Source of the DNA: Euryarchaeota archaeon UBA443
GTDB taxonomy: Archaea; Thermoplasmatota; Poseidoniia; Poseidoniales; Poseidoniaceae
DNA length: 64,000 bases
Direction of reading: 5' to 3'
Assembly (NCBI GenBank): GCA_002499195.1
Contig: DAKS01000039.1
Span: 11,720 to 75,719 of the forward strand
The notes beneath the pieces are model-generated. The model saw only the letters and a list, made by a program, of their open reading frames with translations, had not been told where the DNA came from and did not search any database. Shown here piece by piece: positions 11,274 to 47,724 of this stretch. Numbering within the stretch: position 1 is the first letter of the stretch; the number at the start of each line of letters is the position of its first letter. The position numbers and the translations under genes are program-made.

Positions 11274-13520
11274 GTGTACATGGAAACCGGGACTCGGTTC
11301 AGAAGCACCCTCGTGTTCCTTGTTGTTTCCGTAACAATGTTCAGTTCAGTCAGCGCTTCATCTAGTACTGGATTGTTTTTTCTGGAAGGGATTGAAGTCG
11401 ATGATGCGGATTCGGGAATAAGAACAATTGAAATTGATGCGGATGGGAATATTTTTGCTTCTTTTGGTTCAACTTTGTACAAACTATCAGCCTTAGGTTC
11501 AATCCTAGAAGAGAGATCATTCTCCACCGAAATTTCTGCAACATCTTTATCGCCAGATTTCACAAAATTAGCACTCACATTGCGTTCCGGTGCAAGTGGT
11601 GAAGATTCTGTTTTTTTGCTGTCAACAGGGGATTTGAGTACACTCGTATCAAATGATGTAACGCGTACAAACGCACACCTTCTTGAATGGTCATCGAACG
11701 GTGCTAAACTCTATTCGAATGCACCCGATGCTGGAATTTTGCAATTAAATCGTGAAACTTTGACTCAAGAAACGTCTTATGTCGGAAATCATAGCGGGGA
11801 GATGGCATGTTTTGATGTTTCAGAGTCTAGTGGTTCTGTCCTTACAGCCGATGAGAATGGATTGATTCAGTTGTGGAACAGTGCTGGTGATGTGCTGCAA
11901 CAAGAAATTCTTCTTCAATCGATAATTCATGATTGTAAAATAGGTGACAACGATGAATATTTTTCTATTTCAACTCCTGATAATGGAATCCGTAAATGGA
12001 CCTTTACTGGCTCAGAATTGAAACCAATTGATATTGATGATGCTATACATTTCGAATTGGCTCCAAGTCCAAATGTTATCATTGTTCACAAGGATTCCCC
12101 AACGCAGCACATCCTTGTTTATGATTATCTAAATGAACAAATCATCGACCAAGTTGAAATGTTTCACAATTTTGATGATTATGAGCTTGTATTTGATGAT
12201 GCGGATAATATTGAGAATATTTTTACTAATTCAAAGGTTGATTATGTAGTAAAGTATGGGACAGAAGTTCATCGAATAGGAGTAGGTCAATCAGGAATCG
12301 ATACCGATGGCGATGAGATTCCTGATTCGCTTGATAATGATGACGATGGCGATGGAATCGAAGATAATTGGGATCTAAACTGTGAAGACATAGGGATATC
12401 ATGTGAATTGTTACCTGATGAGAATTATATTCGAAGCATAGACGTTGAAATCAATTCCACACATATTGTTGTAAAACAATCATTTACACTCAACAAAAAA
12501 CATTCGACCACCATAAGGGATTTATCACGCTATTCAATGGATACGGACATCAAACTCATCGAAGCCGAAGCACAGTTGTTTGCGGATTCAATTTGCGGTA
12601 ATATGAATGAAGCACAGCTTGCCAACTCAATCTCTTCGACGATAAACTTCGGTAATGCGACATTGGATTTTGTCAATTTATACTGTTCAATTGAGGATGG
12701 AATGGTCCTCTACTCTGCGAGTGATGGGACATCTCATATCCGTTATTCTGTATCCGTGACATATCGTTTTGATTCCAGTCAATCACTGAATGGGATCGTA
12801 CTTCAAGTGCAGAATAATCGCTTCCATTCCGACGGTAGCATGACTGAATTGAGTGAACAACACCCGCTCTCCATTAGAGTGCACGGTGATGAAATTAGCA
12901 CTCTAGAATATGTCCCTTGGCACATTCAGGAACAACAAGTATCCTTTACGCTTAGCACAAAGGGAGGAAATTCTGAATCACTAGATCCATCATCCATTAT
13001 TTCTTCACCAATCGTAATCGCCATTGGCATAATTGGAATTGGAGGATTTTTATTAGTCGGAATTTTCCTTTTCAAGCGACAATCTGAACGGGATAGTTAC
13101 GATATTACTCTAGATGAAGAGGAAGATGAAGAGGAAGATGAATATTTAGATGAGGAATACGAAGATTATGATTCCGTCGAAGAAGAGGAAATCGAGGAGG
13201 AAGAAATTTCTGAACCGTCGAAACGTAGACCTCCGCCTCGTCGAAGGAAAAAACAAACGTCTAGTAAGCGTGTTCCAGTTCAAAGTAAAGAAGTAAATCA
13301 AGCTCAACAACTTCTTCAGGAATCCTCTAATGAAGTTGTTCGCAAGCGTAGAGCACGCCGTTCCGATTCTACTGTTAAAAGCAAGCGACGGAAATTAAGT
13401 GATGTTCAGAGCGTTGATTCTCAACCTCGAAAGCGTCGAGCGGTGAAGCGCAAGAGCCAATCCGATGATCAAATGGACGAAACGCTGAAACGATTCGTTT
13501 CTGAATCACCAGAGGAATGA
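11274..13520 (+). CDS. Secreted type-I membrane surface protein: beta-propeller-like ectodomain, TSP3-like Ca-binding Asp repeats, one C-terminal TM, and an acidic-then-polybasic cytoplasmic tail.
   Basis: A signal peptide (TLVFLVVSVTMFSSVSA) is present. DTDGDEIPDSLDNDDDGDGIEDNWD is a TSP3-like module. The TM IVIAIGIIGIGGFLLVGIFLF is followed by EEEDEEEDE..., then KRRPPPRRRKKQ..., RKRRARR..., KRRKL... and RKRRAVKRK. Confidence 0.6.
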   Translation: MYMETGTRFRSTLVFLVVSVTMFSSVSASSSTGLFFLEGIEVDDADSGIRTIEIDADGNIFASFGSTLYKLSALGSILEERSFSTEISATSLSPDFTKLALTLRSGASGEDSVFLLSTGDLSTLVSNDVTRTNAHLLEWSSNGAKLYSNAPDAGILQLNRETLTQETSYVGNHSGEMACFDVSESSGSVLTADENGLIQLWNSAGDVLQQEILLQSIIHDCKIGDNDEYFSISTPDNGIRKWTFTGSELKPIDIDDAIHFELAPSPNVIIVHKDSPTQHILVYDYLNEQIIDQVEMFHNFDDYELVFDDADNIENIFTNSKVDYVVKYGTEVHRIGVGQSGIDTDGDEIPDSLDNDDDGDGIEDNWDLNCEDIGISCELLPDENYIRSIDVEINSTHIVVKQSFTLNKKHSTTIRDLSRYSMDTDIKLIEAEAQLFADSICGNMNEAQLANSISSTINFGNATLDFVNLYCSIEDGMVLYSASDGTSHIRYSVSVTYRFDSSQSLNGIVLQVQNNRFHSDGSMTELSEQHPLSIRVHGDEISTLEYVPWHIQEQQVSFTLSTKGGNSESLDPSSIISSPIVIAIGIIGIGGFLLVGIFLFKRQSERDSYDITLDEEEDEEEDEYLDEEYEDYDSVEEEEIEEEEISEPSKRRPPPRRRKKQTSSKRVPVQSKEVNQAQQLLQESSNEVVRKRRARRSDSTVKSKRRKLSDVQSVDSQPRKRRAVKRKSQSDDQMDETLKRFVSESPEE

Positions 13521-18559: not shown

Positions 18560-20695
18560 TTGAGCATCGGCCGCCGAATCTTTCTCAAACTTTGTCGATT
18601 TGGCAAGTTCATGTCCGCTGATGATGGCCCATACATTCCAGCGGACCAGGAACCGAAGGAACTTACATTGCGTGTCCTTGTCGTAGGAGTAATTCTTGGA
18701 ATCTTAATGACTGCAGCAAACGCATATCTTGGACTGTATGCAGGGATGACGGTTTCAGCGAGTATTCCTGCTGCAGTCATGTCAATGCTAATTTTGCGTA
18801 GCATGTTCAAGGACGTAAGTATTCTCGAAAATAATGCTGTTCAAACGATGGCTAGTGCTGGTGAATCATTGGCAGCCGGTGTTATTTTCACCGTTCCAGC
18901 TATGCTCGTAATTGGAATATGGGTAGATATCGAATGGTTCCCAACCTTATCGATTGCTTTGCTAGGTGGACTTCTTGGAACAATGTTCACCATCGCATTA
19001 CGCCGTCTCTTCATTGTCGAGGAAGCCTTACCCTACCCGGAAGGAGTTGCCTGTAGAGAAGTTCTTGTGGCTGGGGAAGAAGGAGGCAGTGGTGCATTGG
19101 CGATCGTCTATGCTCTAGGAATCGGTGCTCTGTACGGGCTTATGGTCAAGGGATTCAAAGTCACACACCATTCTGCTGAGACAGCATTTGAATTCATGAA
19201 AACTAGGATGTATGCTGGTATTGACTTGTCAGTAGCACTACTATCTGTTGGTTTTATTGTCGGAATACGAATCGCATCATTCATATTTTTGGGTGGAATT
19301 ATTGGCTTTGGCATTTTAGTTCCACTCTTTGGATACTTGAACGGTTGGCCAGAATCGGACACCCTCGCTGGAGGATTTGACAAATTATGGCTTGAGCAAG
19401 TTCGTTACGTTGGAGTCGGAGCAATGGTTGTGGGAGGAATTTACACCCTCTGGAGCATGCGAAAAACCATTATCACTGGACTGAAAAAGTCCTTCGATCA
19501 AAGTAGTTCAGATTCAGAATTACATTTGCGAACAGAGAAGGATCTTCCAATGAAATGGGTCACTGTTACATGTGGAGTTCTTGTTGTCCTAACCTTCTTC
19601 TTCTACTGGCTCATTACGGGATCATTGCTTCTTTCTCTTGCGGGTGCCTTATTCCTTGCATTAGTGGCATTTTTCTTTGCCGCGGTTGCTGGCTACATCG
19701 CTGGCGTGGTCGGGTCAAGTAACTCACCTGTATCAGGAATGACAATTGCCACACTGTTATTCACCGTTGGACTTGTTTGGATTGTTGGCTCATTGATTCT
19801 TGACCTATCGCAAACCGAACTAATGTATGCAACATTACTGATCGCTGCTGTTGTTGCAAGCAGTGCAGCAATTGCAGGCGATGTGATGCAGGACCTCAAG
19901 ACCGGTCATATGGTAGGAGCAACTCCTTGGCGTCAACAAATAGCAGAGATTGTTGGAGTCATTACAGGTGCATTCGTGATTGGACCCACTATTGCCCTTT
20001 TGCACAAAGCATTCCAAATTTCATCTACTGCGTGTATCGCAACAAATGAACGAATTGGAGCGGGTTTGCAAGATCCAATCGATACACCTGATGGCTTCTA
20101 CGATTGTAACGATGCACTTTTTGCACCTCAAGCAGAACTTATTGGTGCGATTGTAAAAGGCGCATTTGTCGGAGATATGAATCTGCCAATGGTCTTCCTT
20201 GGTGCTGCACTTGCCGTCCTATTGATTCGTCTTTCAATGCCTGTGATGTCTGTAGCGATTGGAATTTATCTACCGTTGAAACTAAGCGTTCCAATTATGC
20301 TTGGTGGGATTTTGTCCTCACTAGCTATTGGTGCGGCTTACCTTAGAGTTGATGGAACCCTTGATCGGAAACCATCCAAGAAGGCAAAAGAAGCTGCAGC
20401 AGATGTAGAGAGCAGAGGAGTTCTAATCGGAGCCGGCTTTATCGCTGGAGAGTCAATTCTTGGAGTTCTAATAGCAGTTCTAATCGTACTAAATATTAAA
20501 CTCGACGAAGAGTTCGGTATTCACGAATTATCTCAATCATTATCCATTCTCTTCTTCGCATGGTTTGTTGGAGTATTCATTTGGTTGGCTACGAGAGCAC
20601 TTCCTGGAAGTGGAAATTTAGCAAAGGAGATTTTTACAACTGCAACTCACTCTATCAAGAAATTTATTCGTTCTCTGATTCCTCAATCCAAATAA
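18560..20695 (+). CDS. OPT-family oligopeptide transporter.
   Basis: A 711-aa polytopic membrane protein with OPT-superfamily N-terminal and central conserved regions. An alternative start lies at 18620 (MSADDGPY). Confidence 0.75.
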   Translation: MSIGRRIFLKLCRFGKFMSADDGPYIPADQEPKELTLRVLVVGVILGILMTAANAYLGLYAGMTVSASIPAAVMSMLILRSMFKDVSILENNAVQTMASAGESLAAGVIFTVPAMLVIGIWVDIEWFPTLSIALLGGLLGTMFTIALRRLFIVEEALPYPEGVACREVLVAGEEGGSGALAIVYALGIGALYGLMVKGFKVTHHSAETAFEFMKTRMYAGIDLSVALLSVGFIVGIRIASFIFLGGIIGFGILVPLFGYLNGWPESDTLAGGFDKLWLEQVRYVGVGAMVVGGIYTLWSMRKTIITGLKKSFDQSSSDSELHLRTEKDLPMKWVTVTCGVLVVLTFFFYWLITGSLLLSLAGALFLALVAFFFAAVAGYIAGVVGSSNSPVSGMTIATLLFTVGLVWIVGSLILDLSQTELMYATLLIAAVVASSAAIAGDVMQDLKTGHMVGATPWRQQIAEIVGVITGAFVIGPTIALLHKAFQISSTACIATNERIGAGLQDPIDTPDGFYDCNDALFAPQAELIGAIVKGAFVGDMNLPMVFLGAALAVLLIRLSMPVMSVAIGIYLPLKLSVPIMLGGILSSLAIGAAYLRVDGTLDRKPSKKAKEAAADVESRGVLIGAGFIAGESILGVLIAVLIVLNIKLDEEFGIHELSQSLSILFFAWFVGVFIWLATRALPGSGNLAKEIFTTATHSIKKFIRSLIPQSK

Positions 20696-37751: not shown

Positions 37752-40700
37752 ATGCCTGAGATAACATATCTCGAACATCCGACAGATACGGATGCTTTAA
37801 TGGAGAAATTATGTCCACCAGTTCGCAATTGGTTCAAGGAAAAGTTTCCTGACTTTACCCGTCCACAAAAACTCGCAATTCCAACGATTATGGATGGAGG
37901 CCACCTTCTTCTTTGTTCCCCCACAGGTTCGGGTAAGACACTTACAGCATTTCTTACGATTATCGATCAATTGGTTCGCAAAGCACTGAATGGAAAATTG
38001 GAAAACAGAATTCATTGCGTTTACATTTCTCCAATCAAAGCACTTGCCAACGACATCCAGAAAAACCTCATCGGGCCACTTACAGAGATTTCAGAACGAT
38101 TTTTGCCAGACCGTGCACAGGAGATCAAAGTCGGTTTACGTACAGGAGATACACCTCAATCTGAACGTCAAAAGATGTTGCGAAAACCCCCCCACATCCT
38201 GATCACGACACCTGAGAGCCTTGCGATTGCGATTACATCGCCAAGATTTCAGCCCATCATCAGCGATGTTGAATACATGATTATCGATGAGTTACACTCC
38301 CTAGTGTCATCCAAGCGTGGAGTCCATCTAGCACTTACACTTGCTTACTTGGACACACTCCTTGAACGCCCTGTACAAAGAATTGGAATTTCAGCGACAA
38401 TGGAGCCATTGGAAACAGTTGCGGAATATTTGGTTGCTAGTGATGATCGTGAATCACGCGGGGATGGACAGAAGGTTCATATCGCGAAGGTTTCAGGTTC
38501 AAGAGAACTCGATTTGGACATTTTACTCCCTCATACAAAATTTAGTGATTTGCCTGTATTGAAAATATTAGATGAGAACATTAGCGTTATCGCTGACCTC
38601 ATCTCAGCACATACGACAACACTTGTTTTTGCAAACACGAGAAAGATGACAGAAACGTTGGTTCAGCGGCTCAAACGGCCTGAGTTTGGTCTCGGAGAAC
38701 TTGTTGCTGGCCATCACGGTTCGATGGACAAAAAGATTCGGCTCAATGTTGAGCAGAAATTGAAAAAAGGGCACTTGCGTGCAGTTGTAACCTCTTCTTC
38801 CCTTGAAATGGGTATCGATATCGGTACTGTAGATATGGTGATTCAACTCGGTTCTCCTGGAGATATCGCAACAGCATTGCAAAGAATCGGCCGTGCTGGC
38901 CATCATGTAGGAGGTATTCCTCGTGCACGGTTCTTACCATCGAGTGTTGACGATTTGATTGAACTGGCTGCCCTACAAGCAGCGATTCAATCAGGAGAAA
39001 TGGATCGGCTTGATTTCCCAGAAAATTGTCTTGACGTCGTTGCACAGTTCCTAATCGGTCTGGTAATCATAAACGAAATAGATATCGATGAGGCTTTCGA
39101 AATAGTATCCAGTGCGTGGAATTATCGTAATTTTGAGTATGATGATTTCATTGAAGTCCTGGATATGCTTGAGGAGGAACGCCGTGTTTGGATTGATTGG
39201 GAAGATAATACCTATGGAAAACGTGGTTACTCTCGGATGATCTACTACACAAATATTGGAACTATCGCCCCTGATAATTCATATCTTGTATTCAATGCGG
39301 AAGGATCTATTCTTGGACAACTTTCTGGCTCCTTCGTTTCTAATCTTCGAGGCGGGGACGTCATTTTGCTAGGAGGTTCTACATATCGAGTTACAAACAT
39401 CCAAGGAACAAGGGTCAATGTATCCAGCGTTACAGGATATAGGCCAACCGTTCCATCATGGTCTGGTGAGGCCCGTTCAAGAAGTCGCGAGTTGTCTTCA
39501 TCCCTCCTATCACTCATTCGACATTGTATGATTTCACTTCGACGAGAACAAGACCCGCGTTTGGTTCTTAGAGATGCTTACGGGCTGTCAAATGCAGTCT
39601 CAAATGCGATTGCTAGACACTTGGAGGAACACACCATCGATTCATTCCAAGTTCCTGAACCAAATCGAATTCTTATCGAACAAATCATCGGCACAGGTCA
39701 TCCTGCTTATCTGATTACGACCTGCCGTGGTCGTGCGTTCAACACAGCTCTAGGATACTTTATGGCAGGTATTGCAGAATCATCAGGTATCAGTGTAATT
39801 GAATTATCATTTGATGAAAATGGACTGCTTATTCGAACCGCTCAGGAAGTTGATCCAGCACAACTCTACGAAGCGTTTCGTTCAAACAATCACATCGAAG
39901 TTATCGAACGCTACATCATCAACACACAGATTTTCGCCAAGCGATTTAGAGAGGTTGCAGGTCGTTCAATGATTATTCCAAAGCGCGTTGGAGCAGAAGA
40001 GATAAGCCCGCAACAATTCCAGCAAAAGGCCGAAGCACTTCTAACTAGACATCGTACAATGGAAGGTTCCTTATTGATGAGAGAAGCAAAAAATGAGGTC
40101 TTGTTTGGTGATATTGATGTCTTTGGATTAAATCAATTCTTAGAATCCTGTATCGAAGGTGATGCTCGAATTGTTCACACAAAGGTGACGATTCCATCAC
40201 GCCTTGGAATGAGTCTCTACATGTCCGCATTTGAAGACTTGATGTCGATGAAAACGCGCGCATTCCTTGTCAAGGACATCGATCCTGAAGTCCTTCGTCG
40301 ATTGATGGGAACACGTAGTCTTGCTACGGAAATGACCTCCGAACAACTCGACAAATATTACAGCGATAAAGCCCCTATACCTGATTCTCCAGAATCGCTC
40401 TACGAATTGATGCAGCATGGAGGAGGACTAGATCGAGAGTTCAACAACCCTCTTTATAGAAACAAACTCGATGGAATTGATTTGAATTTGATTAGAACTT
40501 GGGTAGAGACTCTCTGTCAAAGTGGAAAAATCACCAAAGTCAATGGGACCGGTGAACCGGATATCGACGGGAAATGGTTCAATCCATTCATGGCGGAAAT
40601 ACACGGCACTTTGGCTTGTCTTGCCACCAGTGATTCCAGTTCAATTATTGATCTAAGAGATTATGATACCAAGGACATGTCCTTTGAAATCGCTATTGAA

Positions 40701-43043
40701 TTTGATGGTACAACACCAACCAAATGGAAAACTATCCCTGTGGGAGATCCTCATGAAGCTCTTCGTGTTAAGATTCTTGAGCTTCTTGGTTCAGAAGGAC
40801 CAAAAACAACTGAAACACTGCATCAACGTCTACCATTCTCTGAGAAATCTGTTGATCGTATCGTCCACGAATTGGAGACTCGTAACGTTATCAGCGTTGG
40901 TTTCTTTACGCAGACAGATGATGCTGAACTCATCCTCAAGGTCGATGAACACCGTATCACTGGTGGAGAGGAAGAAATCGTTGAGTATCGATGGATTCAA
41001 AATTTGGTCTTGGATAAATCATTCAAGAAATATAATGATGTTTTCGAAGCGTTTAATCAACATGTTCTCGTTCAAAAACAACAAGAATTACTTTACAGAA
41101 TAGAGGATTTCCGATTCAAGGATTGGAAAGATTTGCAACTTGACTCCGACGTTGTCAGTGGCCGATTATTGCATAATCGAATGGGTTATACAACCAAAAA
41201 TAACATTCCAATGCTCCTAGGACTCAAACCTGAACCATGGATTGGTGCGATGGAAGAGGAAGTTCTGTCAAAGCTTCACATAGATGAAAACATAACGCGT
41301 CAAGAATTAGTCCAAGACTTCCCTAAGGGAGAAGAGCACCGACAACTCGAACGTGATGTTAAAAATGCAATTTCCAATCTTGACCGCCAAATGTTGTTTG
41401 TTAAACAATTCGAAGAAGTCATTGGACGAAGGCGAAGGTTGTCCTTGTTCCACAAAGTTCACGGAGTCTACAAACCGATGGATTTCGAAGATGCACTGGA
41501 AGAAGTTGTTCGTCGTATGGGGCCAGTAAAGGCTAGTACATTACGATTCTACGTCTCTAGAAATTATGAAGACCTACTCGTTGCGCTTCACAATCTAGAA
41601 ACTAGTGGACGCATCTCAAAAGTTACTGCTCTCGTACCCGATACAGAGGACTTCTATTGTACACCTGCTGAAGTTGAAATGTTACAAGTTCCTCGGCGAG
41701 AAGATCGCACAATACGAATATTAACACAATCAGATCCTTACGTATCACGATTCATTTGGGAAGTTCGTTCAGCATTGGATAGAGGATGGTACTTACCTGT
41801 CTTCAAGGGCGTCGATCCGGTTGGAAAAGTTCTCATGTTCCGCGTGAATGATTATCTTGAAATCAAGGACATGCATATCCCAACAGCGTATTTCGAAGAA
41901 TTTTGTGATGCATTCCTAGTCTTGCTGGAAAACCATGCGGACCAACTTGTTGATGTCGCTGTATTAACCAATGTCAATGGTGAGACAATTTCAGAACTTA
42001 GTAGCCCAATGCGTGCTGGATTGGAGAGAATTGGATTCAAGCAAGTAGGTGAGCGAATGATTCGTGGTGGAATCGTTGATCCACAACCACGAGAGATTGC
42101 TGAACGAGCATTGTTCTATCAACATCATTTGCATCAGGAAACGCGTCACGAGAATGAGACATTAGCACTTAGAAAGATTAAGGAAATCCGTGATGATTTT
42201 GCCTTGCGAGGTCGTTGTGAGGTATTTCGAACCAACCTAAAGTCCATGGCCAGTGCGAATCGCCTCCACAAGGGAGTCAATATGCGAGGTCATCAGGTAT
42301 GGGCGCCATACGAATATTTCGAGACCTTGCTTACGATTAGAGGAATTCCTCCAGAGGATGATTTGGTTGATATCATTGATTTCTTTAGTACTCAAACCGA
42401 TCCAAACATCTTCAAGGAACGTCATGCTTTGACACAATCTGAATTTAGGAAACTGGTCCAACCATTGATTCGGACTGGACACATTGTCGAAGATTTCCGA
42501 GGTGGATTCCGCGCGGTCCATCCTAGGACCGATGCTGATCCTGTCCACTTAAGGCGCGAGTATTTACGAAGCCTTGTAAGCGATTATCCTGTCATCACCA
42601 TCAAACAGTTATTGCGACTTTCAGGAACTCCTTTCAAGCCAGAAGAGTTGAAAGCGATTCTCAACGAATTCGAAGAAGATGGAACCCTTATCAAAGGATT
42701 CTTGATCGAAAATTTACATCAAGTTTGTTGGGGAAGAAAGGAATTGCTAGAATCGGCGAAATCAATCAATCCAATACGCGACTTCGTGTTGCCGCCAACC
42801 GATCCAATCGCTCCATATTTCGGCGATGTTCTGAAAGAAAAGTTTGGTTTTGGTAGCGCATATCTAGTGTTCAAAAATGCTGAGCCTGTTGCAGCTTTCA
42901 AAGCAAACACGAGAAACAAAACTATCGATGTCACCGACTATGAAGGAAGCGAGAAGGGATGGCGTGTGGTCAAAGAATTCGCTTGGGAGCATCAAGTTCC
43001 TCTCAAGACAGAGTTACGGATCGGTGGAAAAAGGATTGGCTGA
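37752..43043 (+). CDS. lhr: Lhr-like superfamily-2 helicase (DEAD/DEAH) with a very long C-terminal extension (1763 aa).
   Basis: Helicase motifs are present: I CSPTGSGKT, II IIDELHS, III SAT, VI QRIGRAGH. Lhr-type winged-helix/domain-4 regions run to about aa 900. A further about-850 aa follow with no obvious catalytic motif. Confidence 0.85.
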   Translation: MPEITYLEHPTDTDALMEKLCPPVRNWFKEKFPDFTRPQKLAIPTIMDGGHLLLCSPTGSGKTLTAFLTIIDQLVRKALNGKLENRIHCVYISPIKALANDIQKNLIGPLTEISERFLPDRAQEIKVGLRTGDTPQSERQKMLRKPPHILITTPESLAIAITSPRFQPIISDVEYMIIDELHSLVSSKRGVHLALTLAYLDTLLERPVQRIGISATMEPLETVAEYLVASDDRESRGDGQKVHIAKVSGSRELDLDILLPHTKFSDLPVLKILDENISVIADLISAHTTTLVFANTRKMTETLVQRLKRPEFGLGELVAGHHGSMDKKIRLNVEQKLKKGHLRAVVTSSSLEMGIDIGTVDMVIQLGSPGDIATALQRIGRAGHHVGGIPRARFLPSSVDDLIELAALQAAIQSGEMDRLDFPENCLDVVAQFLIGLVIINEIDIDEAFEIVSSAWNYRNFEYDDFIEVLDMLEEERRVWIDWEDNTYGKRGYSRMIYYTNIGTIAPDNSYLVFNAEGSILGQLSGSFVSNLRGGDVILLGGSTYRVTNIQGTRVNVSSVTGYRPTVPSWSGEARSRSRELSSSLLSLIRHCMISLRREQDPRLVLRDAYGLSNAVSNAIARHLEEHTIDSFQVPEPNRILIEQIIGTGHPAYLITTCRGRAFNTALGYFMAGIAESSGISVIELSFDENGLLIRTAQEVDPAQLYEAFRSNNHIEVIERYIINTQIFAKRFREVAGRSMIIPKRVGAEEISPQQFQQKAEALLTRHRTMEGSLLMREAKNEVLFGDIDVFGLNQFLESCIEGDARIVHTKVTIPSRLGMSLYMSAFEDLMSMKTRAFLVKDIDPEVLRRLMGTRSLATEMTSEQLDKYYSDKAPIPDSPESLYELMQHGGGLDREFNNPLYRNKLDGIDLNLIRTWVETLCQSGKITKVNGTGEPDIDGKWFNPFMAEIHGTLACLATSDSSSIIDLRDYDTKDMSFEIAIEFDGTTPTKWKTIPVGDPHEALRVKILELLGSEGPKTTETLHQRLPFSEKSVDRIVHELETRNVISVGFFTQTDDAELILKVDEHRITGGEEEIVEYRWIQNLVLDKSFKKYNDVFEAFNQHVLVQKQQELLYRIEDFRFKDWKDLQLDSDVVSGRLLHNRMGYTTKNNIPMLLGLKPEPWIGAMEEEVLSKLHIDENITRQELVQDFPKGEEHRQLERDVKNAISNLDRQMLFVKQFEEVIGRRRRLSLFHKVHGVYKPMDFEDALEEVVRRMGPVKASTLRFYVSRNYEDLLVALHNLETSGRISKVTALVPDTEDFYCTPAEVEMLQVPRREDRTIRILTQSDPYVSRFIWEVRSALDRGWYLPVFKGVDPVGKVLMFRVNDYLEIKDMHIPTAYFEEFCDAFLVLLENHADQLVDVAVLTNVNGETISELSSPMRAGLERIGFKQVGERMIRGGIVDPQPREIAERALFYQHHLHQETRHENETLALRKIKEIRDDFALRGRCEVFRTNLKSMASANRLHKGVNMRGHQVWAPYEYFETLLTIRGIPPEDDLVDIIDFFSTQTDPNIFKERHALTQSEFRKLVQPLIRTGHIVEDFRGGFRAVHPRTDADPVHLRREYLRSLVSDYPVITIKQLLRLSGTPFKPEELKAILNEFEEDGTLIKGFLIENLHQVCWGRKELLESAKSINPIRDFVLPPTDPIAPYFGDVLKEKFGFGSAYLVFKNAEPVAAFKANTRNKTIDVTDYEGSEKGWRVVKEFAWEHQVPLKTELRIGGKRIG

Positions 43044-43065
43044 ATGTCAAATCAATTTGCCATGT

Positions 43066-43082
43066 TCTTGATATTAAAGCGC
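43066..43082 (+). promoter_or_regulatory. TATA-like element inside the Lhr/surface-protein junction.
   Basis: ttgatattaaagcg lies 26 nt upstream of the candidate start 43098 and about 90 nt upstream of the signal-peptide Met at 43164. Confidence 0.25.
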
Positions 43083-43097
43083 TCACGTATCGTATAC

Positions 43098-46000
43098 ATG
43101 AGTAAAAATTCGGAAGTGATGTGTAGGCAATGGAGTTATGAACGTCCAAGCCTTGACAGGGACATGCCCAAAGGCTCACCCCTCGTCGCATCCACACTTA
43201 TTTTGATGATGTTAGCATCAACATGTTTGGTGGCTACTGCCCAAGCAGAGGAAAATATACTCGATGAAATTGAGATTATGCACACTGCAATCAATCCAGC
43301 CAATAACAAGACCTACCATCTTCTCTCCGAATCTTCTTGGGAGGATGCTGCCTTCAAAGCACGTTCACTTGATGGATACTTGACCACCATCGATGATGCT
43401 GAAGAAAACACATGGGTGTTCGACACGTTTGCTAGTTTCAATGAACAAAGCCGTCACCTGTGGATCGGTTTGAACGACGTCCAAGATGAAGGCATGTATC
43501 GATGGCATGACGGAACCCCCTTCTTGTATCGAAATTGGGGGACGGACCAACCAACAGGTGGAGATGATTCAGATTATGTCCACATCGCATCAACCAACAT
43601 GGGCAACATCATGCCACAAACATGGAATGATCTTGAAAACAATCCAGAATACTTCCCTGTTTACGGTGTTGTAGAGGTTGGACCTGGTGCAGATTTTTCA
43701 CTTCGTTTCAATGGAATTGAAGATCACATTGTTATCAAACACGATGAAGGCCTCATGACAAATGGTTCGTTAAGCATCGAAGCAACCATCAAATCCACCG
43801 ATTTAACTGGCATTCGTTTCATTACCATGAAAGGTGATTACGGCTGGGGTATGTATCTCTCCGATGGATACATTGGATATGCTTCAGAATACAGTTTGTC
43901 CAAACACCCTCTTTCCACCACTAGCATTACTGAAGATACGTGGCATACCATCGGTATCGAAATCGTCGAAGGAGTAGGTGGACAATTCATAGTCGACGGT
44001 AATCATGCTGGAAATATTTCTGCAGAAGATGCAAACATTCCAGAAGGTGATTTTGGTTCGAACGATTGTTTCACTTCCGGAGATTCATGCGATGAACTCT
44101 ACATCGCTCGAATGGGTGCTGGTTGTGATTGCTATCACTTTGAAGGGATTATTGATGAAGTTAGCATCTCCTTCGCAGAAGATAACGTGTGGACTCCTGT
44201 AAGCGATTGGACCTTCTGGGAAGGAGAGGGAGGCGACACTGGAGATGCGCTCAATGATGAAACAATGCAGCGTGTTGGTACCATTCATGGAGCGGATTGG
44301 GTCATGCCTGATGGATCCATTGTTGCACAAGCTGTTGAATTATCAAACCATGAATACATTATCATCGAGAATGCTCAACAGGGAGATACACTACTGTTCT
44401 ATGCGGAACTTGAAGAATACACATTCATGATCGATATCTACATGTGGGGATGGTCAGAAGAGTACTACGATGACTGGGATTATGAATTCGAGGATAGCCT
44501 CTATTTCGATGCCTATGTTGGCTATGATAAAATTCCTGCTCCATGGGATTATGATGAGCAATTGGAAGGATATTATGGGTCTATTTGGAACTCTTGGACA
44601 TGGCCTGATGCTGAAGTGATATGGTTCTCAGTTGTTGTGAACCAAGACATCGAAGAATTCGAAATTGAAGCATCTTGGGAAGTTGCAGAAGCTCCACCGA
44701 GCCTCGATGAAATGACCGAATTGTACAATGGCATCCCAATTCCTTCGCAATCCCTAGAAGGTGATCGTGACAATTACGATGCTGAATTATCCTATTACTA
44801 CGTCAATGTAACCGATTCCCTTACCGAGCTTAAGGTAGAAACGTACGGTGGAAAAGGAAACGTGGACCTGATAATGTCTTCTGGCGGACCTATCGATCCA
44901 AATTATTACTACTACTATCCAGAACCGTTTGAGGATTTTATCGAGGTACCTAATGGCCAAAGCAGTGTCATTTGGTCGTCAAATAATGGAAACGATGAGG
45001 AAGTCAACATGTTCGATGTTGAACCAGGAATCTACTACATAACCGCATTCACATATCGAAAGTCAAACGATTTCACCATCGTTGCAGATTTCACTTATGC
45101 GCCAGCAAATGCTGATCCTTCAACTGCAATCGAGTTGCAAGATGGTATTGCCTATGGACCGATGAGTGGATACGATGGACTTGACCAATATTTCTTCATC
45201 GATGTTCCAAGTGGAACAGAACGCTTGGAAGTTGATCTCGATGGTGGATTTGGCCAAGCAACCCTCCATATGCGCTACGAAAATACACCAACTGCGAGTG
45301 AATCCGACCATCACTCCGGAGCGCCAGGTGCTGGTGATAAAATCGGTTTCAACAATCCAACTCCTGGCACGTGGCATATTCTTCTCGACTCGGAAAGTGT
45401 ATTCAGTGGAGTCTCGATTACTGCTTCCTTTGAGGATCTCTACGTTTGGGAATACGATGGTACGCCAATCGAGTTGTTCAACGATGAGGCTGTCGATGGC
45501 CTAAGTGCTCCTGCTGGAGAAGAACTGTATTTCTACGTTGATTTGCAAACCCGATCAGAGGAACTTATCATCAACACGTACGGAGGCGAAGGTTCGCTTT
45601 ACATCGCTGCTGATGGCGAAGTTGATTATGGTGATTTCTTTGATTTCGATGAATTTGGAGACTTTGATTTCCTTGATGAGGATATCTTCGGTGAACAATT
45701 CACATCTTACGGAGAAGGAACACAGCATGAACTCTACGTTTACTCTCCGGCTGCTGGCCGATTTGATATAACCCTCATCGCTGAAGACGACTTTTCCGAT
45801 GTCTCCATCGTCGCCTATTGGAAAGAAGACCTACGACCTGTTCCTGGACCAGACCCCCCACTTGTCGTAGATCCTGAAGAGATCTATGCCTGCGATTCTA
45901 ATCTCGAGGAGTTCTTCAAGGACTCTGACATCAATGGAGATGGAATGCTGAATGGTGATGAATTCCGTCGTTCAGACCCTTCCGATGATATTGTATTCAA

Positions 46001-46784
46001 TGATATTGATACCACGGGCGATGGATTCATTGAGTATACTGAAGTTGTTGCTTATGCTTGCACCTGCGAGAATGAACTCATGATGTTGAGTGAACAACTT
46101 CCATACAAGACATCGGTCGAATTCTTCGAATCCTTAGTACTGAAGAATGATTATGATTTGGAAGTCTTGGACATGAATGAAGACGATTACGTCACATATG
46201 ATGAACTTCAAAAGGGATTCGAAACATGCACAACCACCTTCAATCCTTTCGACAGTGATGGTGATGGAGTACCAGACATCGATGACCAGTTCCCGGACGA
46301 CCCAGATGAATCAAAGGATGCTGATGGTGATGGAATTGGTGATAATGCCGACTTCGCACCCAGTGTTGCAAACGATATCGTCTACGGGGCAGGAGGCGCA
46401 TTGCTCATCGTTCTCATCGGTTTATTAGTTCTCTTCGTCCGTGGAGGCGGCGGCTCCAACCAAAGAATGGATGAAGAATGGAATAAGACCGATGCTTTTT
46501 CAGAACAGATGTTGGGCATGAACAACCAATCAACGACTCAGAAAGAATTACCTGGAGCGCCACAATTGGAACCAATTGATGACGCAACTCCTTCATATCA
46601 AGAATCTGAAGTTCCAATCTATGATTTCGGACAAGCCAACTTAGAAGCATCATCTTTTGAACAACCGGCAGCCAGTTTGATGGGAATGATGGATGCAAAT
46701 GGACGAGAACACATCGAATACCCTACAAATAGCGGAAGATTGTGGTATCGAGATGAACCAGATTCGGATTGGATCAAGAACTAG
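43098..46784 (+). CDS. Large mosaic surface protein with a signal peptide, C-type-lectin-like domain, LamG/ConA-like domain, three PPC domains, an EF-hand pair, TSP3-like repeats, one TM and a cytoplasmic tail.
   Basis: The ORF opens at 43044; candidate starts are 43098 (TATA-like element about 26 nt upstream) and 43164 (MPKGSP plus a classic signal peptide LVASTLILMMLASTCLVATAQA). Domain evidence: CTLD-like WIGLNDVQDEGMYRWHDGTPFLYRNWGTDQPTGG...WND; PPC-like DNYDAELSYYYVNV...GNVDLIM repeated three times; EF-hands DSDINGDGMLNGDEF and DIDTTGDGFIEYTEV; TSP3 DSDGDGVPDIDDQFPDDPDESKDADGDGIGDNAD; TM IVYGAGGALLIVLIGLLVLFV. Confidence 0.75.
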   Translation: MSKNSEVMCRQWSYERPSLDRDMPKGSPLVASTLILMMLASTCLVATAQAEENILDEIEIMHTAINPANNKTYHLLSESSWEDAAFKARSLDGYLTTIDDAEENTWVFDTFASFNEQSRHLWIGLNDVQDEGMYRWHDGTPFLYRNWGTDQPTGGDDSDYVHIASTNMGNIMPQTWNDLENNPEYFPVYGVVEVGPGADFSLRFNGIEDHIVIKHDEGLMTNGSLSIEATIKSTDLTGIRFITMKGDYGWGMYLSDGYIGYASEYSLSKHPLSTTSITEDTWHTIGIEIVEGVGGQFIVDGNHAGNISAEDANIPEGDFGSNDCFTSGDSCDELYIARMGAGCDCYHFEGIIDEVSISFAEDNVWTPVSDWTFWEGEGGDTGDALNDETMQRVGTIHGADWVMPDGSIVAQAVELSNHEYIIIENAQQGDTLLFYAELEEYTFMIDIYMWGWSEEYYDDWDYEFEDSLYFDAYVGYDKIPAPWDYDEQLEGYYGSIWNSWTWPDAEVIWFSVVVNQDIEEFEIEASWEVAEAPPSLDEMTELYNGIPIPSQSLEGDRDNYDAELSYYYVNVTDSLTELKVETYGGKGNVDLIMSSGGPIDPNYYYYYPEPFEDFIEVPNGQSSVIWSSNNGNDEEVNMFDVEPGIYYITAFTYRKSNDFTIVADFTYAPANADPSTAIELQDGIAYGPMSGYDGLDQYFFIDVPSGTERLEVDLDGGFGQATLHMRYENTPTASESDHHSGAPGAGDKIGFNNPTPGTWHILLDSESVFSGVSITASFEDLYVWEYDGTPIELFNDEAVDGLSAPAGEELYFYVDLQTRSEELIINTYGGEGSLYIAADGEVDYGDFFDFDEFGDFDFLDEDIFGEQFTSYGEGTQHELYVYSPAAGRFDITLIAEDDFSDVSIVAYWKEDLRPVPGPDPPLVVDPEEIYACDSNLEEFFKDSDINGDGMLNGDEFRRSDPSDDIVFNDIDTTGDGFIEYTEVVAYACTCENELMMLSEQLPYKTSVEFFESLVLKNDYDLEVLDMNEDDYVTYDELQKGFETCTTTFNPFDSDGDGVPDIDDQFPDDPDESKDADGDGIGDNADFAPSVANDIVYGAGGALLIVLIGLLVLFVRGGGGSNQRMDEEWNKTDAFSEQMLGMNNQSTTQKELPGAPQLEPIDDATPSYQESEVPIYDFGQANLEASSFEQPAASLMGMMDANGREHIEYPTNSGRLWYRDEPDSDWIKN

Positions 46785-47724
46785 GCTTGGTCTTTTTCTT
46801 TCTCAATCCAGCTGCTTCGAGCAACCTAAGGATGTGGCGATGCAGTTCAGGAAGCAATTCGAACATGGCGATAGCCATCACGAACATTGCAAAGAGTGAA
46901 ACAACTCTAGATGCATAGGAATGTCCGAATTCAAACATACTCAATCCTAAATATTCCCATCCCTCATATGAGAGATGCATCCAAATCAATCCTGCATTGC
47001 GGAACAGATTGAGAATGTGAATAATGGGGATGGTGAAGAGCAAGGCTCGAATTCTACGCTTTCTATCAACATCTAGCACTGAAATTGCACCAATAAATAC
47101 AATCATTGATTGAAGTGCAGTACAAGCAAGAACAAAATTGATGCCGATTGCACCTCCATCTGCCATGATCAATTCTGTTTGAAATGGATGTTCTCCGAAA
47201 CCGTCGGTCATGAACCACTTATTCCCATCCCATTCGGACCAAGAAACCTGGCCAGCATCAGTGTTGACCATAGTTTCACCAAGTTTTATGTCGATAGTTC
47301 CCGTAAACGAAAGGAACATTGCTACCTGTGAAGCAACAAACCAAATCGCAAGTACCGACAACCACGGTATATGCGCAACAAGTAGGTAGGGCCCACCAGC
47401 ATATGCAACGCACCCACGGGCCCAATTCAATGCAGCACGGTCACGGGATGTCAGTGAACGTGCTTCTGCAATCACCAAAGCCACGGCGATTGGAAGAGCG
47501 AGTGCAGTCATTATTGTAAGAACAATATCTCCAAGTTCGAAGTAATACATTGAATCATTGAAAAAATAAATTCCAACGAGAACCCAGCCTGTTTGAGCAA
47601 GTCTGGAAACTCCCTCATTGTGGCGTTTATGCCACGAAATTGCTAACATAACCATACCAATAGCGCCTGCAATGGTGGCAACTTCCTTGGCAAGGAACAT
47701 GACATTCCCAGAACTCAACCTCAT
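46774..47724 (-). CDS. Putative archaeosortase/exosortase-family polytopic membrane protein.
   Basis: 316 aa with about 8 TM helices. A Cys sits in a TM (VLACTALQS, Cys201) and an Arg lies 41 residues later in the next TM (LNLFRNAGLIW, Arg242); that spacing matches the ArtA Cys173/Arg214 pair. A further Arg lies in the following TM. This is a recollection-based family call only. Confidence 0.4.
   Translation of the reverse strand: MRLSSGNVMFLAKEVATIAGAIGMVMLAISWHKRHNEGVSRLAQTGWVLVGIYFFNDSMYYFELGDIVLTIMTALALPIAVALVIAEARSLTSRDRAALNWARGCVAYAGGPYLLVAHIPWLSVLAIWFVASQVAMFLSFTGTIDIKLGETMVNTDAGQVSWSEWDGNKWFMTDGFGEHPFQTELIMADGGAIGINFVLACTALQSMIVFIGAISVLDVDRKRRIRALLFTIPIIHILNLFRNAGLIWMHLSYEGWEYLGLSMFEFGHSYASRVVSLFAMFVMAIAMFELLPELHRHILRLLEAAGLRKKKTKPSS

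Follow-up and report, generated by a model that had tools for sequence, protein, structure and literature searches.

The window analysed here, a 64,000-nucleotide stretch of a Poseidoniales contig, carries on its plus strand a maximal open reading frame at 43044..46784 (1246 amino acids plus stop), followed by a convergent gene for archaeosortase A. The first-pass annotation had read this frame as a mosaic adhesin on a type-I membrane anchor. Its coordinates are exact and the gene is real, but the start it adopted, M1, is probably not the true one. The stop codon of the upstream helicase abuts M1, and the N-termini of 33 aligned homologues line up with M41 (MPKGSPLVASTLILMMLASTCLVATAQA), so that the true coding sequence probably runs from 43164 to 46784. 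Residues 41–68 (43164..43247, plus strand, as are all features of the gene) then form an N-terminal signal peptide with a hydrophobic stretch at 44–66. This peptide and a single transmembrane (TM) helix agree with the proposed topology. Profile, fold and conservation tests upheld the domain inventory as a whole, with Pfam matches above cut-off for lectin, PPC and EF-hand alike, and the contig is archaeal rather than a bacterial contaminant.

Residues 72–213 (43257..43682) form a C-type lectin-like domain (CTLD). The window protein matches Pfam Lectin_C (PF00059) at 38.1 bits against a cut-off of 22.6, all 33 homologues match the same profile, and a family profile compared with the PDB retrieved the CTLDs of PLA2R, DEC-205 and mannose receptors at E-values of 5e-45 to 1e-13. 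The domain had been described as essentially free of cysteine, which proved right: the window protein has no Cys from residue 62 to 341, and the four canonical cysteines of the two core disulfides are absent, the CTLD being Cys-free in 33/33 homologues. The homologue alignment retains the WIGL motif, and Q169, P170 and W194-N195-D196 are invariant across the 33 homologues. Residue 171 is S or T, giving a QP[S/T] tripeptide rather than QPD or EPN, and the acidic position is represented by E at residue 176 (21/33) and D at residue 177 (23/33). Of the five positions that make up the canonical Ca2+/sugar site, four are retained (Q169, acidic 176/177, N195 and D196), and both these residues and the loop around them (YVHIASTNMGNI) show little or no variation among the 33 homologues, which come from both families of the order. 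AlphaFold2 (AF2) assigned pLDDT values below 50 to residues ~143–198, the long-loop region of the putative site. The combination of QP-x with WND suggests that any carbohydrate bound would be of the galactose type; many CTLDs do not bind sugars. The CTLD also contains an N-glycosylation sequon, N88, kept in 33/33 homologues. With 65–73% identity across the order, as against 47–50% for the whole protein, it is the best-conserved large domain.

The adjoining region, residues 214–405 (43683..44258), had been called LamG-like. The fold was confirmed, whereas a sequence profile was not: in the window protein this region has no Pfam match even at E≤10. AF2 modelled it as a LamG/ConA-like beta-sandwich of the pentraxin/LNS type with pLDDT of about 80–95, and Foldseek matched the model to laminin LG4-5, neurexin LNS, PTX3 and agrin G domains with probability 1.00 and E-values of 1e-7 to 1e-10. 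Among the homologues, 8/33 match Laminin_G_3 (PF13385; best E 1.1e-9), and a divergent orthologue (P0198) reaches 47 bits against a cut-off of 27.6. Four cysteines (342, 349, 361 and 363) are invariant in this domain.

Downstream lies a stalk of beta-sandwiches. The three pre-peptidase C-terminal (PPC) repeats proposed earlier all exist, but the total is four, with a further module, B0, upstream of them. P1 (residues 556–690; 44709..45113) and P2 (694–800; 45123..45443) match Pfam PPC (PF04151, cut-off 25.9) at 27.8 and 43.1 bits, P2 being the best conserved of the four. P3 (803–930; 45450..45833), a PPC-like sandwich with an acidic Phe-rich loop, and B0 (408–548; 44265..44687), a divergent sandwich that AF2 predicts to be all-beta, have no Pfam match. 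Profile–profile comparison with hhalign linked P3 to P1 (97.7%) and to P2 (91%), and B0 to P3 (96.6%, E 5e-10). Foldseek matched the PPC tandem, P1 included, to the tandem collagen-binding domains of ColG.

Between the stalk and the membrane is an extracellular EF-hand domain (residues 947–1066; 45882..46241). Canonical loops had been predicted, and both profiles and conservation bear them out, but there are three rather than two, at 962–973, 989–1000 and 1043–1054, with ligand positions 1, 3, 5 and 12 of every loop kept in 33/33 homologues. Scanned alone, the region scored 39.5 bits with EF-hand_1 (cut-off 25.4) and 35.1 bits with EF-hand_7 (cut-off 30); in the whole-protein Pfam scan, EF-hand_6 was the sole EF-hand family above cut-off. 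Four cysteines (950, 1006, 1008 and 1062) are invariant here. Next to the membrane, residues 1067–1108 (46242..46367) comprise two thrombospondin type 3 (TSP3)-like DxDGDG repeats of the Ca2+-binding type, in which the motif DxDxDGxxDxxD occurs as DSDGDGVPDIDD and as DADGDGIGDNAD, with little or no variation. The TSP3-like run noted earlier is thus present as a motif, twice, but not as a profile match above cut-off: the isolated segment scored 15.7 bits with Pfam TSP_3 (PF02412, cut-off 25; E 0.012), and none of the 33 homologues matched TSP_3 at E≤0.01. Its best support came from the repeats of a bacterial OmpA-family protein (PDB 5wtl, E 1e-6). A Poseidoniales relative with the same anchor (L063) does exceed the cut-off, at 81.1 bits. 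At 71–79% identity across the order, the segment is the most conserved stretch of the protein. The EF-hands and TSP3-like repeats are putative Ca2+-binding elements.

The single TM helix spans residues 1112–1133 (46377..46442) and is followed by an invariant Arg. The remaining 113 residues agree with the tail of about 110 amino acids claimed before. They consist of an acidic, variable linker (1134–1206; 46443..46661; conservation 0.35, pLDDT <50) that is predicted to be disordered in the cytoplasm, and a conserved, Trp-rich mini-domain (1207–1246; 46662..46781) with the pattern LMGMxDxxGxExIEYPxxSGxxWxRxxPxxxW over about the last 35–40 residues, modelled by AF2 as a small beta-meander (pLDDT 71–87). 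The anchor is not of the PGF-CTERM kind, as had been argued: the NCBIfam model (TIGR04126) gave no match at E≤1, and the sequence before the helix, ...SVANDIVYGAGG, is without a PGF motif.

We found the mini-domain again at the C-terminus of at least four further giant surface proteins of Poseidoniales, whose ectodomains are unrelated, and at the N-terminus of one type-II protein (P0177). This sharing across giant surface proteins is a new finding. Type-I proteins carry it at the C-terminus and the type-II protein at the N-terminus, which would place it in the cytoplasm in every case, and its presence at the ends of several unrelated giants therefore marks it as a shared cytoplasmic module. 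In proteins that share the tail, the TM helix is immediately followed by RRRR or RRSRRR, which fits this topology. Tail profiles matched no described family in Pfam or the PDB, and its role is a guess because it matches nothing known. A WW domain was also considered, but at E≤10 neither of two tail profiles (A4 and A6) picked up a WW chain from the PDB.

The archaeosortase A gene (artA) lies on the minus strand at 46774..47724 and overlaps the 3' end of the coding sequence by 11 nt; its product scores 93.7 bits with TIGR04125 (cut-off 75). In most loci of sufficient length it abuts the lectin gene, and in about eight the two are 1.1–2.1 kb apart. The first-pass annotation had overlooked this neighbour, as well as the fourth beta-sandwich and the shared cytoplasmic mini-domain. 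Full-length relatives of the lectin protein were found in Poseidoniales only, where the gene is order-wide and syntenic in a conserved housekeeping neighbourhood of Lhr, the lectin gene, artA and TiaS. A variable, island-type adhesin is ruled out by this synteny together with the best-conserved lectin head. The label 'eukaryote-like' or 'metazoan-type' overstated the case: marine bacteria commonly have PPC domains and TSP3-like repeats, a CTLD occurs in a Flavobacterium phage too, and the nearness of the archaeal CTLD to metazoan ones partly mirrors the contents of the PDB.

The most economical reading of the sequence is a Ca2+-dependent surface lectin or adhesin. More specifically, we propose with moderate confidence that the gene equips Marine Group II (MGII; Poseidoniales), which are abundant, uncultured marine archaea, with a glycan receptor or adhesin of type-I membrane topology and selectin-like build. 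A cleaved signal peptide would export the ectodomain, whose CTLD and LamG-like domain would form a membrane-distal, ligand-binding head carried on a stalk of four PPC-type beta-sandwiches. At the base, a disulfide-stapled EF-hand domain and the two TSP3-like repeats may take up Ca2+ from seawater and stiffen the membrane-proximal part. The single helix would serve as anchor, with the acidic linker leading on, inside the cell, to the small beta mini-domain rich in Trp. As this mini-domain recurs in other giant surface proteins, all its carriers are probably docked through it to a single shared cytoplasmic partner or sorting machinery. Thrombospondin genes of Poseidoniales have been cited before as evidence of adhesion (Rinke et al. 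2019, PMC6461757).

Order-wide conservation and a housekeeping location are unusual for environment-facing adhesins, and a structural role in the envelope fits them equally well. The protein may then be a building block of an S-layer-like coat or glycocalyx, with its CTLD and LamG head contacting neighbouring proteins or self-glycans, a reading that we regard as possible but on the whole doubtful. The gene's fixed place throughout the order, the strong purifying selection on the head, the N88 sequon kept in every homologue and the role of the neighbouring archaeosortase A as an envelope biogenesis enzyme all speak for it. The ectodomain is, moreover, strongly acidic (pI ~4.05) and rich in putative Ca2+ sites, recalling S-layers, which are Ca2+-bridged. 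Profile scans, however, found neither an S-layer-type domain nor PGF-CTERM, and a literature search on the MGII envelope returned no relevant paper. A cytoplasmic tail of ~110 residues with a conserved domain is atypical for S-layer proteins, and several other giants share the anchor, so that the lectin protein is not uniquely the envelope protein. As for what a glycan receptor would recognize, the conservation of gene and head accords no less well with a single conserved ligand, or with a structural role, than with opportunistic attachment to particles.

The shared anchor also permits a wider and more tentative proposal, which we put forward as a minority view. The mini-domain, linker, TM helix and TSP3-like repeats may make up a Poseidoniales-specific anchoring system that works in either orientation and connects several ectodomains to one cytoplasmic partner, be it cytoskeletal, sorting or signalling; the CTLD protein would be its universally conserved glycan receptor in the most abundant planktonic archaea. 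If true, this would be an archaeal functional analogue of the coupling from lectin to cell interior of the selectin or layilin type.

A role in substrate capture appears improbable. Here glycoproteins or polysaccharides would be retained at the cell surface by the lectin head and PPC domains for breakdown by separately encoded peptidases or glycosidases, and the products would supply transporters for peptides and sugars. PPC domains are characteristic of secreted peptidases, the collagen-binding domains of a collagenase are the closest match to the tandem fold, and MGII archaea have been described as degraders of proteins and peptides (PMC6461757). The window does encode an OPT oligopeptide transporter (18560–20695), but that gene lies 22 kb off amid unrelated housekeeping genes. 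Moreover, Pfam and NCBIfam profile scans found no catalytic domain in the protein, and the conserved neighbourhood holds no peptidase or glycosidase gene. That archaeosortase A cleaves the C-terminal region and lipid-attaches the ectodomain, the tail being a removable sorting signal, we consider very improbable despite the convergent artA gene directly downstream, given the missing PGF motif and profile match, the ~110 residues with a conserved folded end in place of a short basic terminus, the absence of a common motif before the TM helix in tail-sharing proteins, and a synteny that extends over the entire region, so that adjacency to artA alone says little.

Among known systems, the glycan receptor that we favour resembles selectins, layilin and the mannose-receptor family, which share its layout of signal peptide, distal CTLD, stalk of beta-modules, one TM helix and short cytoplasmic tail, presumably a docking site for partners. 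Metazoan CTLD receptors give the best PDB matches to the archaeal CTLD and have WIGL and WND in common with it. In contrast to the archaeal domain, Cys-free and with QP[S/T], their CTLDs have two disulfides and EPN or QPD; their stalks are built of EGF, SCR or FNII modules, whereas the archaeal protein has a PPC-type stalk, an EF-hand and TSP3-like base and an unrelated tail. The parallel implies no shared ancestry of the architecture.

Thrombospondin and COMP likewise combine a LamG-like (TSPN-type) domain, DxDxDG type-3-like repeats and lectin-like beta-sandwiches. The archaeal repeats differ in number (two), lack Cys pairs, stay below the profile cut-off and are nearer to OmpA-family 5wtl. 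Thrombospondin and COMP are secreted, whereas the archaeal protein is membrane-anchored and has no coiled coil, EGF module or TSP C-terminal domain. With SPARC/BM-40 it shares extracellular EF-hands with conserved cysteines that may form a staple, but no follistatin-like or other SPARC module. As SPARC_Ca_bdg matches were weak (3/33 homologues, best E 0.0025, far under cut-off), we treat this resemblance as a lead only.

Haloarchaeal S-layer glycoprotein and other PGF-CTERM proteins resemble the lectin protein in being large, acidic and anchored in the membrane at the C-terminus, and artA adjoins the lectin gene; they differ from it in their PGF motif, which the lectin protein lacks, its TM helix being followed by a long tail that includes a conserved domain. 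RTX-type marine adhesins such as Marinomonas MpIBP are giant, acidic and Ca2+-loaded and bear ligand modules on a beta-sandwich stalk. The archaeal protein is similarly a giant acidic surface protein with putative Ca2+ sites and a stalk of repeated beta-sandwiches, and TSP3-like repeats comparable to its own occur in many marine Gammaproteobacteria. RTX-type adhesins use type-I secretion and are retained in the outer membrane, whereas the archaeal protein has Sec-type export, a C-terminal TM helix and a tail, and lacks RTX repeats. Their genes are variable, in contrast to the archaeal gene, which is a conserved syntenic core gene.

The open reading frame at 43044–46784 on the forward strand encodes 1246 residues, exactly as the first-pass annotation had it, and its product (hereafter the CTLD protein, for its C-type lectin-like domain; residues are numbered from the first ATG) is a genuine mosaic surface protein. 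The domain list proposed for it was largely right, and required correction of the start codon, the beta-sandwich count, the EF-hand count and the standing of the TSP3-like repeats against the Pfam threshold. The first ATG lies directly 3' of the stop codon of a Lhr-type helicase gene (37752–43043, forward strand, 1763 aa). When 32 homologues are aligned with the protein, their N-termini coincide at M41 (MPKGSPLVASTLILMMLASTCLVATAQA), from which a typical signal sequence runs, and residues 1–40 have no counterpart; the true coding sequence is therefore most likely 43164–46784, preceded by a 120-nt intergenic region. Hydropathy analysis identified only two hydrophobic segments, the signal peptide (44–66) and a helix at 1112–1133, and the model for PGF-CTERM, the sorting signal of archaeosortase A (ArtA) substrates, gave no match at E ≤ 1, in agreement with the proposed anchor of a single transmembrane (TM) helix followed by a long tail. 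From the membrane outward, the protein consists of TSP3-like repeats, an EF-hand domain, four beta-sandwiches, a LamG-like domain and the CTLD, with a Trp-rich tail mini-domain on the inner side of the TM helix.

The proposed lectin module was borne out. Residues 72–213 score 38.1 bits against Pfam Lectin_C (cut-off 22.6), which matches in 33 of 33 homologues; phmmer searches of the PDB retrieved the mannose-receptor family, PLA2R, DC-SIGN and others, and a family profile lifted these matches to E 5e-45. Its description as cysteine-free also stands, as residues 62–341 contain no Cys, the domain is Cys-free in every homologue, and all four canonical CTLD cysteine positions carry other residues. 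By profile the module qualifies as a C-type lectin-like domain; by its disulfides it does not. Among the 33 homologues, Q169, P170 and W194-N195-D196 are invariant, position 171 is Ser (21) or Thr (12), position 176 is Glu in 21 and position 177 is Asp in 23. The canonical Ca2+/sugar site is thus retained at four of its five positions (Q169, the acidic 176/177, N195 and D196), and at the fifth a hydroxyl replaces the amide or carboxylate. The AF2 model (33-sequence alignment) has pLDDT below 50 over residues ~143–198, which cover this putative QPT/WND site. At the start of the domain, the sequon NN[KHN]T (window 43305–43313; N88, NKT) is kept in 33/33 homologues, perhaps as a site of N-glycosylation, perhaps as a structural motif.

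The adjoining LamG-like region (214–405) gave no Pfam match in the window protein, even at E ≤ 10, so the earlier LamG/ConA-like assignment is supported through fold and homologues and not through Pfam on the protein itself. PF13385 matches the region in 8 of the 33 homologues, and reaches 47 bits in the divergent orthologue P0198. The region is modelled confidently (pLDDT about 80–95), Foldseek retrieved laminin LG, neurexin LNS, agrin G and pentraxin domains at E 1e-7 to 1e-10, and Cys 342, 349, 361 and 363 are invariant.

All three pre-peptidase C-terminal (PPC) repeats previously counted in the stalk are present, but the number of PPC-like sandwiches is four. P1 (556–690, 27.8 bits) and P2 (694–800, 43.1 bits) pass Pfam PPC; P3 (803–930) and the additional module B0 (408–548) have no Pfam match, and profile-profile comparison links the set (P1~P3 97.7%, P2~P3 91%, B0~P3 96.6%) while finding no likeness of any of the four to the LamG-like region. 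In fold, the tandem matches the paired collagen-binding domains of ColG as well as CUB-type sandwiches. An acidic, Phe-rich loop within P3 (window 45591–45680, residues ~850–879; GEVDYGDFFDFDEFGDFDFLDEDIFGEQF) varies among homologues and is predicted with low confidence. EF-hands are likewise present, but as three or more loops where two canonical ones had been described: scanned alone, region 947–1066 scored 39.5 bits for EF-hand_1 and 35.1 bits for EF-hand_7, both above cut-off, with three matched stretches. Loops 962–973, 989–1000 and 1043–1054 carry Asp or Asn at positions 1, 3 and 5 in 33/33 homologues, apart from a few Ser or Thr at position 3, and an invariant Glu at position 12. The region is modelled as a helical domain (pLDDT 74–90), in which Cys 950, 1006, 1008 and 1062 are invariant. 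The LamG, PPC and EF-hand assignments thus hold by fold or profile. Closest to the membrane, the TSP3-like repeats (1067–1108; DSDGDGVPDIDD...DADGDGIGDNAD) keep the Ca2+-binding-type motif but fall below the Pfam TSP_3 threshold (15.7 bits versus a cut-off of 25), which none of the homologues passes; they match repeats of the bacterial OmpA-family protein 5wtl at E 1e-6.

Named close relatives of the CTLD protein all derive from Poseidoniaceae, Thalassarchaeaceae or Poseidoniales (Marine Group II, MGII) MAGs. With each GTDB species represented by one genome, a scan returned 302 relatives. Those that span most or the whole of the protein are labelled Poseidoniales or carry the older and broader names Euryarchaeota, Methanobacteriota or Thermoplasmatota, except for one bacterial-binned contig; a second such contig holds a C-terminal fragment of the gene only. 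Outside these archaea, the matches, in many marine bacteria, are to the TSP3-like segment only. These two bacterial-binned contigs, both assigned to Alphaproteobacteria, are CAXQWT010000099.1 ('Salipiger bermudensis' MAG, CTLD gene at 79% identity) and CALDQY010000164.1 ('Rhodobiaceae' MAG, 65%); since both carry MGII artA at 88–91% identity and the longer one also MGII Lhr at 94%, they almost certainly represent archaeal sequence misbinned in public MAGs. We rejected a bacterial contaminant origin of the gene itself, its neighbours including archaeosortase A, TiaS, RFC and Lhr. A truncated gene at the end of a Pseudomonadota MAG contig (L044, 3001–3327), is 37% identical to residues 5–114, which hold the signal peptide and the CTLD's first half. 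Either it is bacterial and distantly related, or the contig is another misbinned one; in both cases it bears on the origin of the CTLD. The label 'metazoan-type' went too far, as PPC and TSP3-like repeats are common among marine bacteria and Flavobacterium phages encode a CTLD at 29% identity. This is the sole phage link found, and the archaeal viruses of the collection yielded no CTLD match.

The gene sits in a housekeeping neighbourhood (MetRS, P-type ATPase, OPT transporter, RFC, ProRS, Lhr, CTLD gene, archaeosortase A, HAD phosphatase, TiaS, adenylosuccinate lyase), whose order is kept on contigs where the CTLD protein is only 47–63% identical; proteasome alpha is among the neighbours in homologous loci. 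The archaeosortase A gene (46774–47724, reverse strand; TIGR04125, 93.7 bits versus a cut-off of 75) lies convergent to the CTLD gene, with whose 3' end it shares 11 nt. It is convergent and downstream in every homologous locus that extends far enough, abutting the CTLD gene in most and lying 1.1–2.1 kb farther off in about eight. The orthologue P0198 (contig L085, 6034–9873, 1279 aa) retains the Lhr/gene/artA/TiaS neighbourhood together with CTLD, LamG, PPC, EF-hand and tail, but the DxDGDG TSP3-like repeats ahead of its TM helix have been lost. Two copies in MAG SP212 (PBMM01000042 and PBMM01000002, 51% and 43% identical to the window protein) could be paralogues or reflect a mixed bin of two populations, and we therefore do not claim strict single-copy status for the gene.

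Conservation of the CTLD protein is highest in the CTLD, P2 and the TSP3-like segment, the last being its most conserved part (71–79% identity across the order); the least conserved stretches are the signal peptide, the EF-hand helices and the tail linker. This distribution suggests that the head has a conserved ligand and that the membrane-proximal collar serves a conserved function. In the model that we favour, a recognition head of CTLD and LamG would be kept away from the membrane by a stalk whose base is loaded with predicted Ca2+ sites, and the protein would serve as a Ca2+-dependent glycan receptor or adhesin. We hold this plausible reading with moderate confidence, given the receptor-like domain order and the conservation pattern. 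Architecture, topology signals, conservation and the sharing of the tail are observed, whereas Ca2+ and sugar binding, a ligand and a partner for the tail belong to the model. As judged from sequence and predicted fold, the layout resembles that of a selectin- or layilin-type receptor, although the protein lies outside both families. The main and serious rival, which we consider somewhat unlikely, is that the protein is a structural component of the envelope, its head touching neighbouring molecules or the cell's own glycans; order-wide conservation and the core-genome location fit such a role equally well, as do the invariant N88 sequon and the envelope-biogenesis neighbour artA. That the protein captures a substrate for extracellular hydrolysis, a reading whose support is circumstantial, appears improbable. 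Processing by the neighbouring archaeosortase is highly improbable, and we rejected a PGF-CTERM/ArtA substrate identity, as the protein lacks both the PGF motif and a profile match and continues past the TM helix into a long, conserved, folded tail; nor is a PGF-CTERM protein encoded anywhere in the 64-kb window.

The tail (1134–1246) begins with an acidic linker that varies among homologues (conservation 0.35, pLDDT <50) and ends in a conserved block, the tail mini-domain (1207–1246), with the motif LMGMxDxxGxExIEYPxxSGxxWxRxxPxxxW and short predicted beta strands (pLDDT 71–87). No Pfam family or PDB chain matched it; a WW domain, to which its pattern bears a superficial likeness, was unsupported in PDB and Pfam searches with two different profiles. 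The block is shared with other proteins, a point absent from the first-pass annotation. A motif search of the fetched loci found it at the end of three further Poseidoniales proteins: L045 (7–3507, at least 1167 aa), which carries a Big_1 domain and, ahead of its TM helix, three TSP3-like repeats; L048 (2–2533, at least 844 aa), with a strongly basic cluster after the TM helix; and L063 (1408–4644, 1079 aa), in which a TIG domain accompanies a bona fide TSP_3 array (81 bits). Elsewhere in the window the motif has no copy.

When 1.84 billion representative proteins were searched with a profile built from the 40 terminal residues, 78 matched at E ≤ 1e-3. Many are C-terminal fragments of the CTLD-protein family (five of five sampled); among the rest are large unrelated proteins that end in the block, such as P0188 (1583 aa; no Pfam domain, a strongly basic cluster after the TM helix), P0192 (1687 aa) and P0196 (1509 aa; RCC1 and TSP3 repeats). 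The ectodomains of these giants are unrelated, containing Big_1, CarboxypepD_reg, TIG, RCC1 or no Pfam domain, and all except P0188 (L045, L048, L063, P0192 and P0196) have TSP3-like or bona fide TSP_3 repeats immediately outside the TM helix. In the type-II protein P0177 (389 aa) the block is instead N-terminal, and a Pro/Ser-rich linker, a TM helix and TSP3-like motifs come after it in that order. The block therefore behaves as an autonomous module, always across the TM helix from the ectodomain, and the P0177 layout implies that it works in both membrane orientations. Its cross-family consensus is G-[YF]-E-x-[ILV]-E-[YHW]-P-x-x-S-G-x-W-W-[YW]-R-x6-W. A predicted cytoplasmic location fits the basic clusters that follow the TM helices of L048 and P0188. 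The mini-domain offers a simple sequence signature for cataloguing giant surface proteins in Poseidoniales genomes, and a bait for their putative intracellular partners.

Public records name the CTLD protein 'hypothetical' or 'pre-peptidase C-terminal domain-containing', and we found no description of its family in the full-text literature searched. The closest published remark concerns 'thrombospondin genes', described as widespread in Poseidoniales and as pointing to adhesion (PMC6461757); these may be the CTLD gene or genes for L063-type proteins, and the text supplements of that article do not name the CTLD gene. A Ca2+-dependent mosaic surface lectin or adhesin is a kind of protein already known; the novel part is the architecture and the shared cytoplasmic mini-domain. 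Because it is order-wide and strongly conserved, with a lectin-type head and a calcium-binding-type stalk, the gene is, on sequence grounds, a concrete and expressible candidate for how these cells recognise algal glycans, particles or one another. It is also a candidate handle, by ligand or antibody, for capture or enrichment of Poseidoniales cells, and a candidate in the question of virus receptor identity.

Two further observations concern other genes. The Lhr-type helicase upstream contains DEAD, Helicase_C, WHD_Lhr and DEAD_assoc domains in homologous loci, and on one contig (L002) it is split into genes of 1469 and 292 aa. The window ORF at 11274–13520 (forward strand, 748 aa), which has one DxDGDG motif and a weak WD40-type Pfam match and is without the tail motif, may encode another surface protein.
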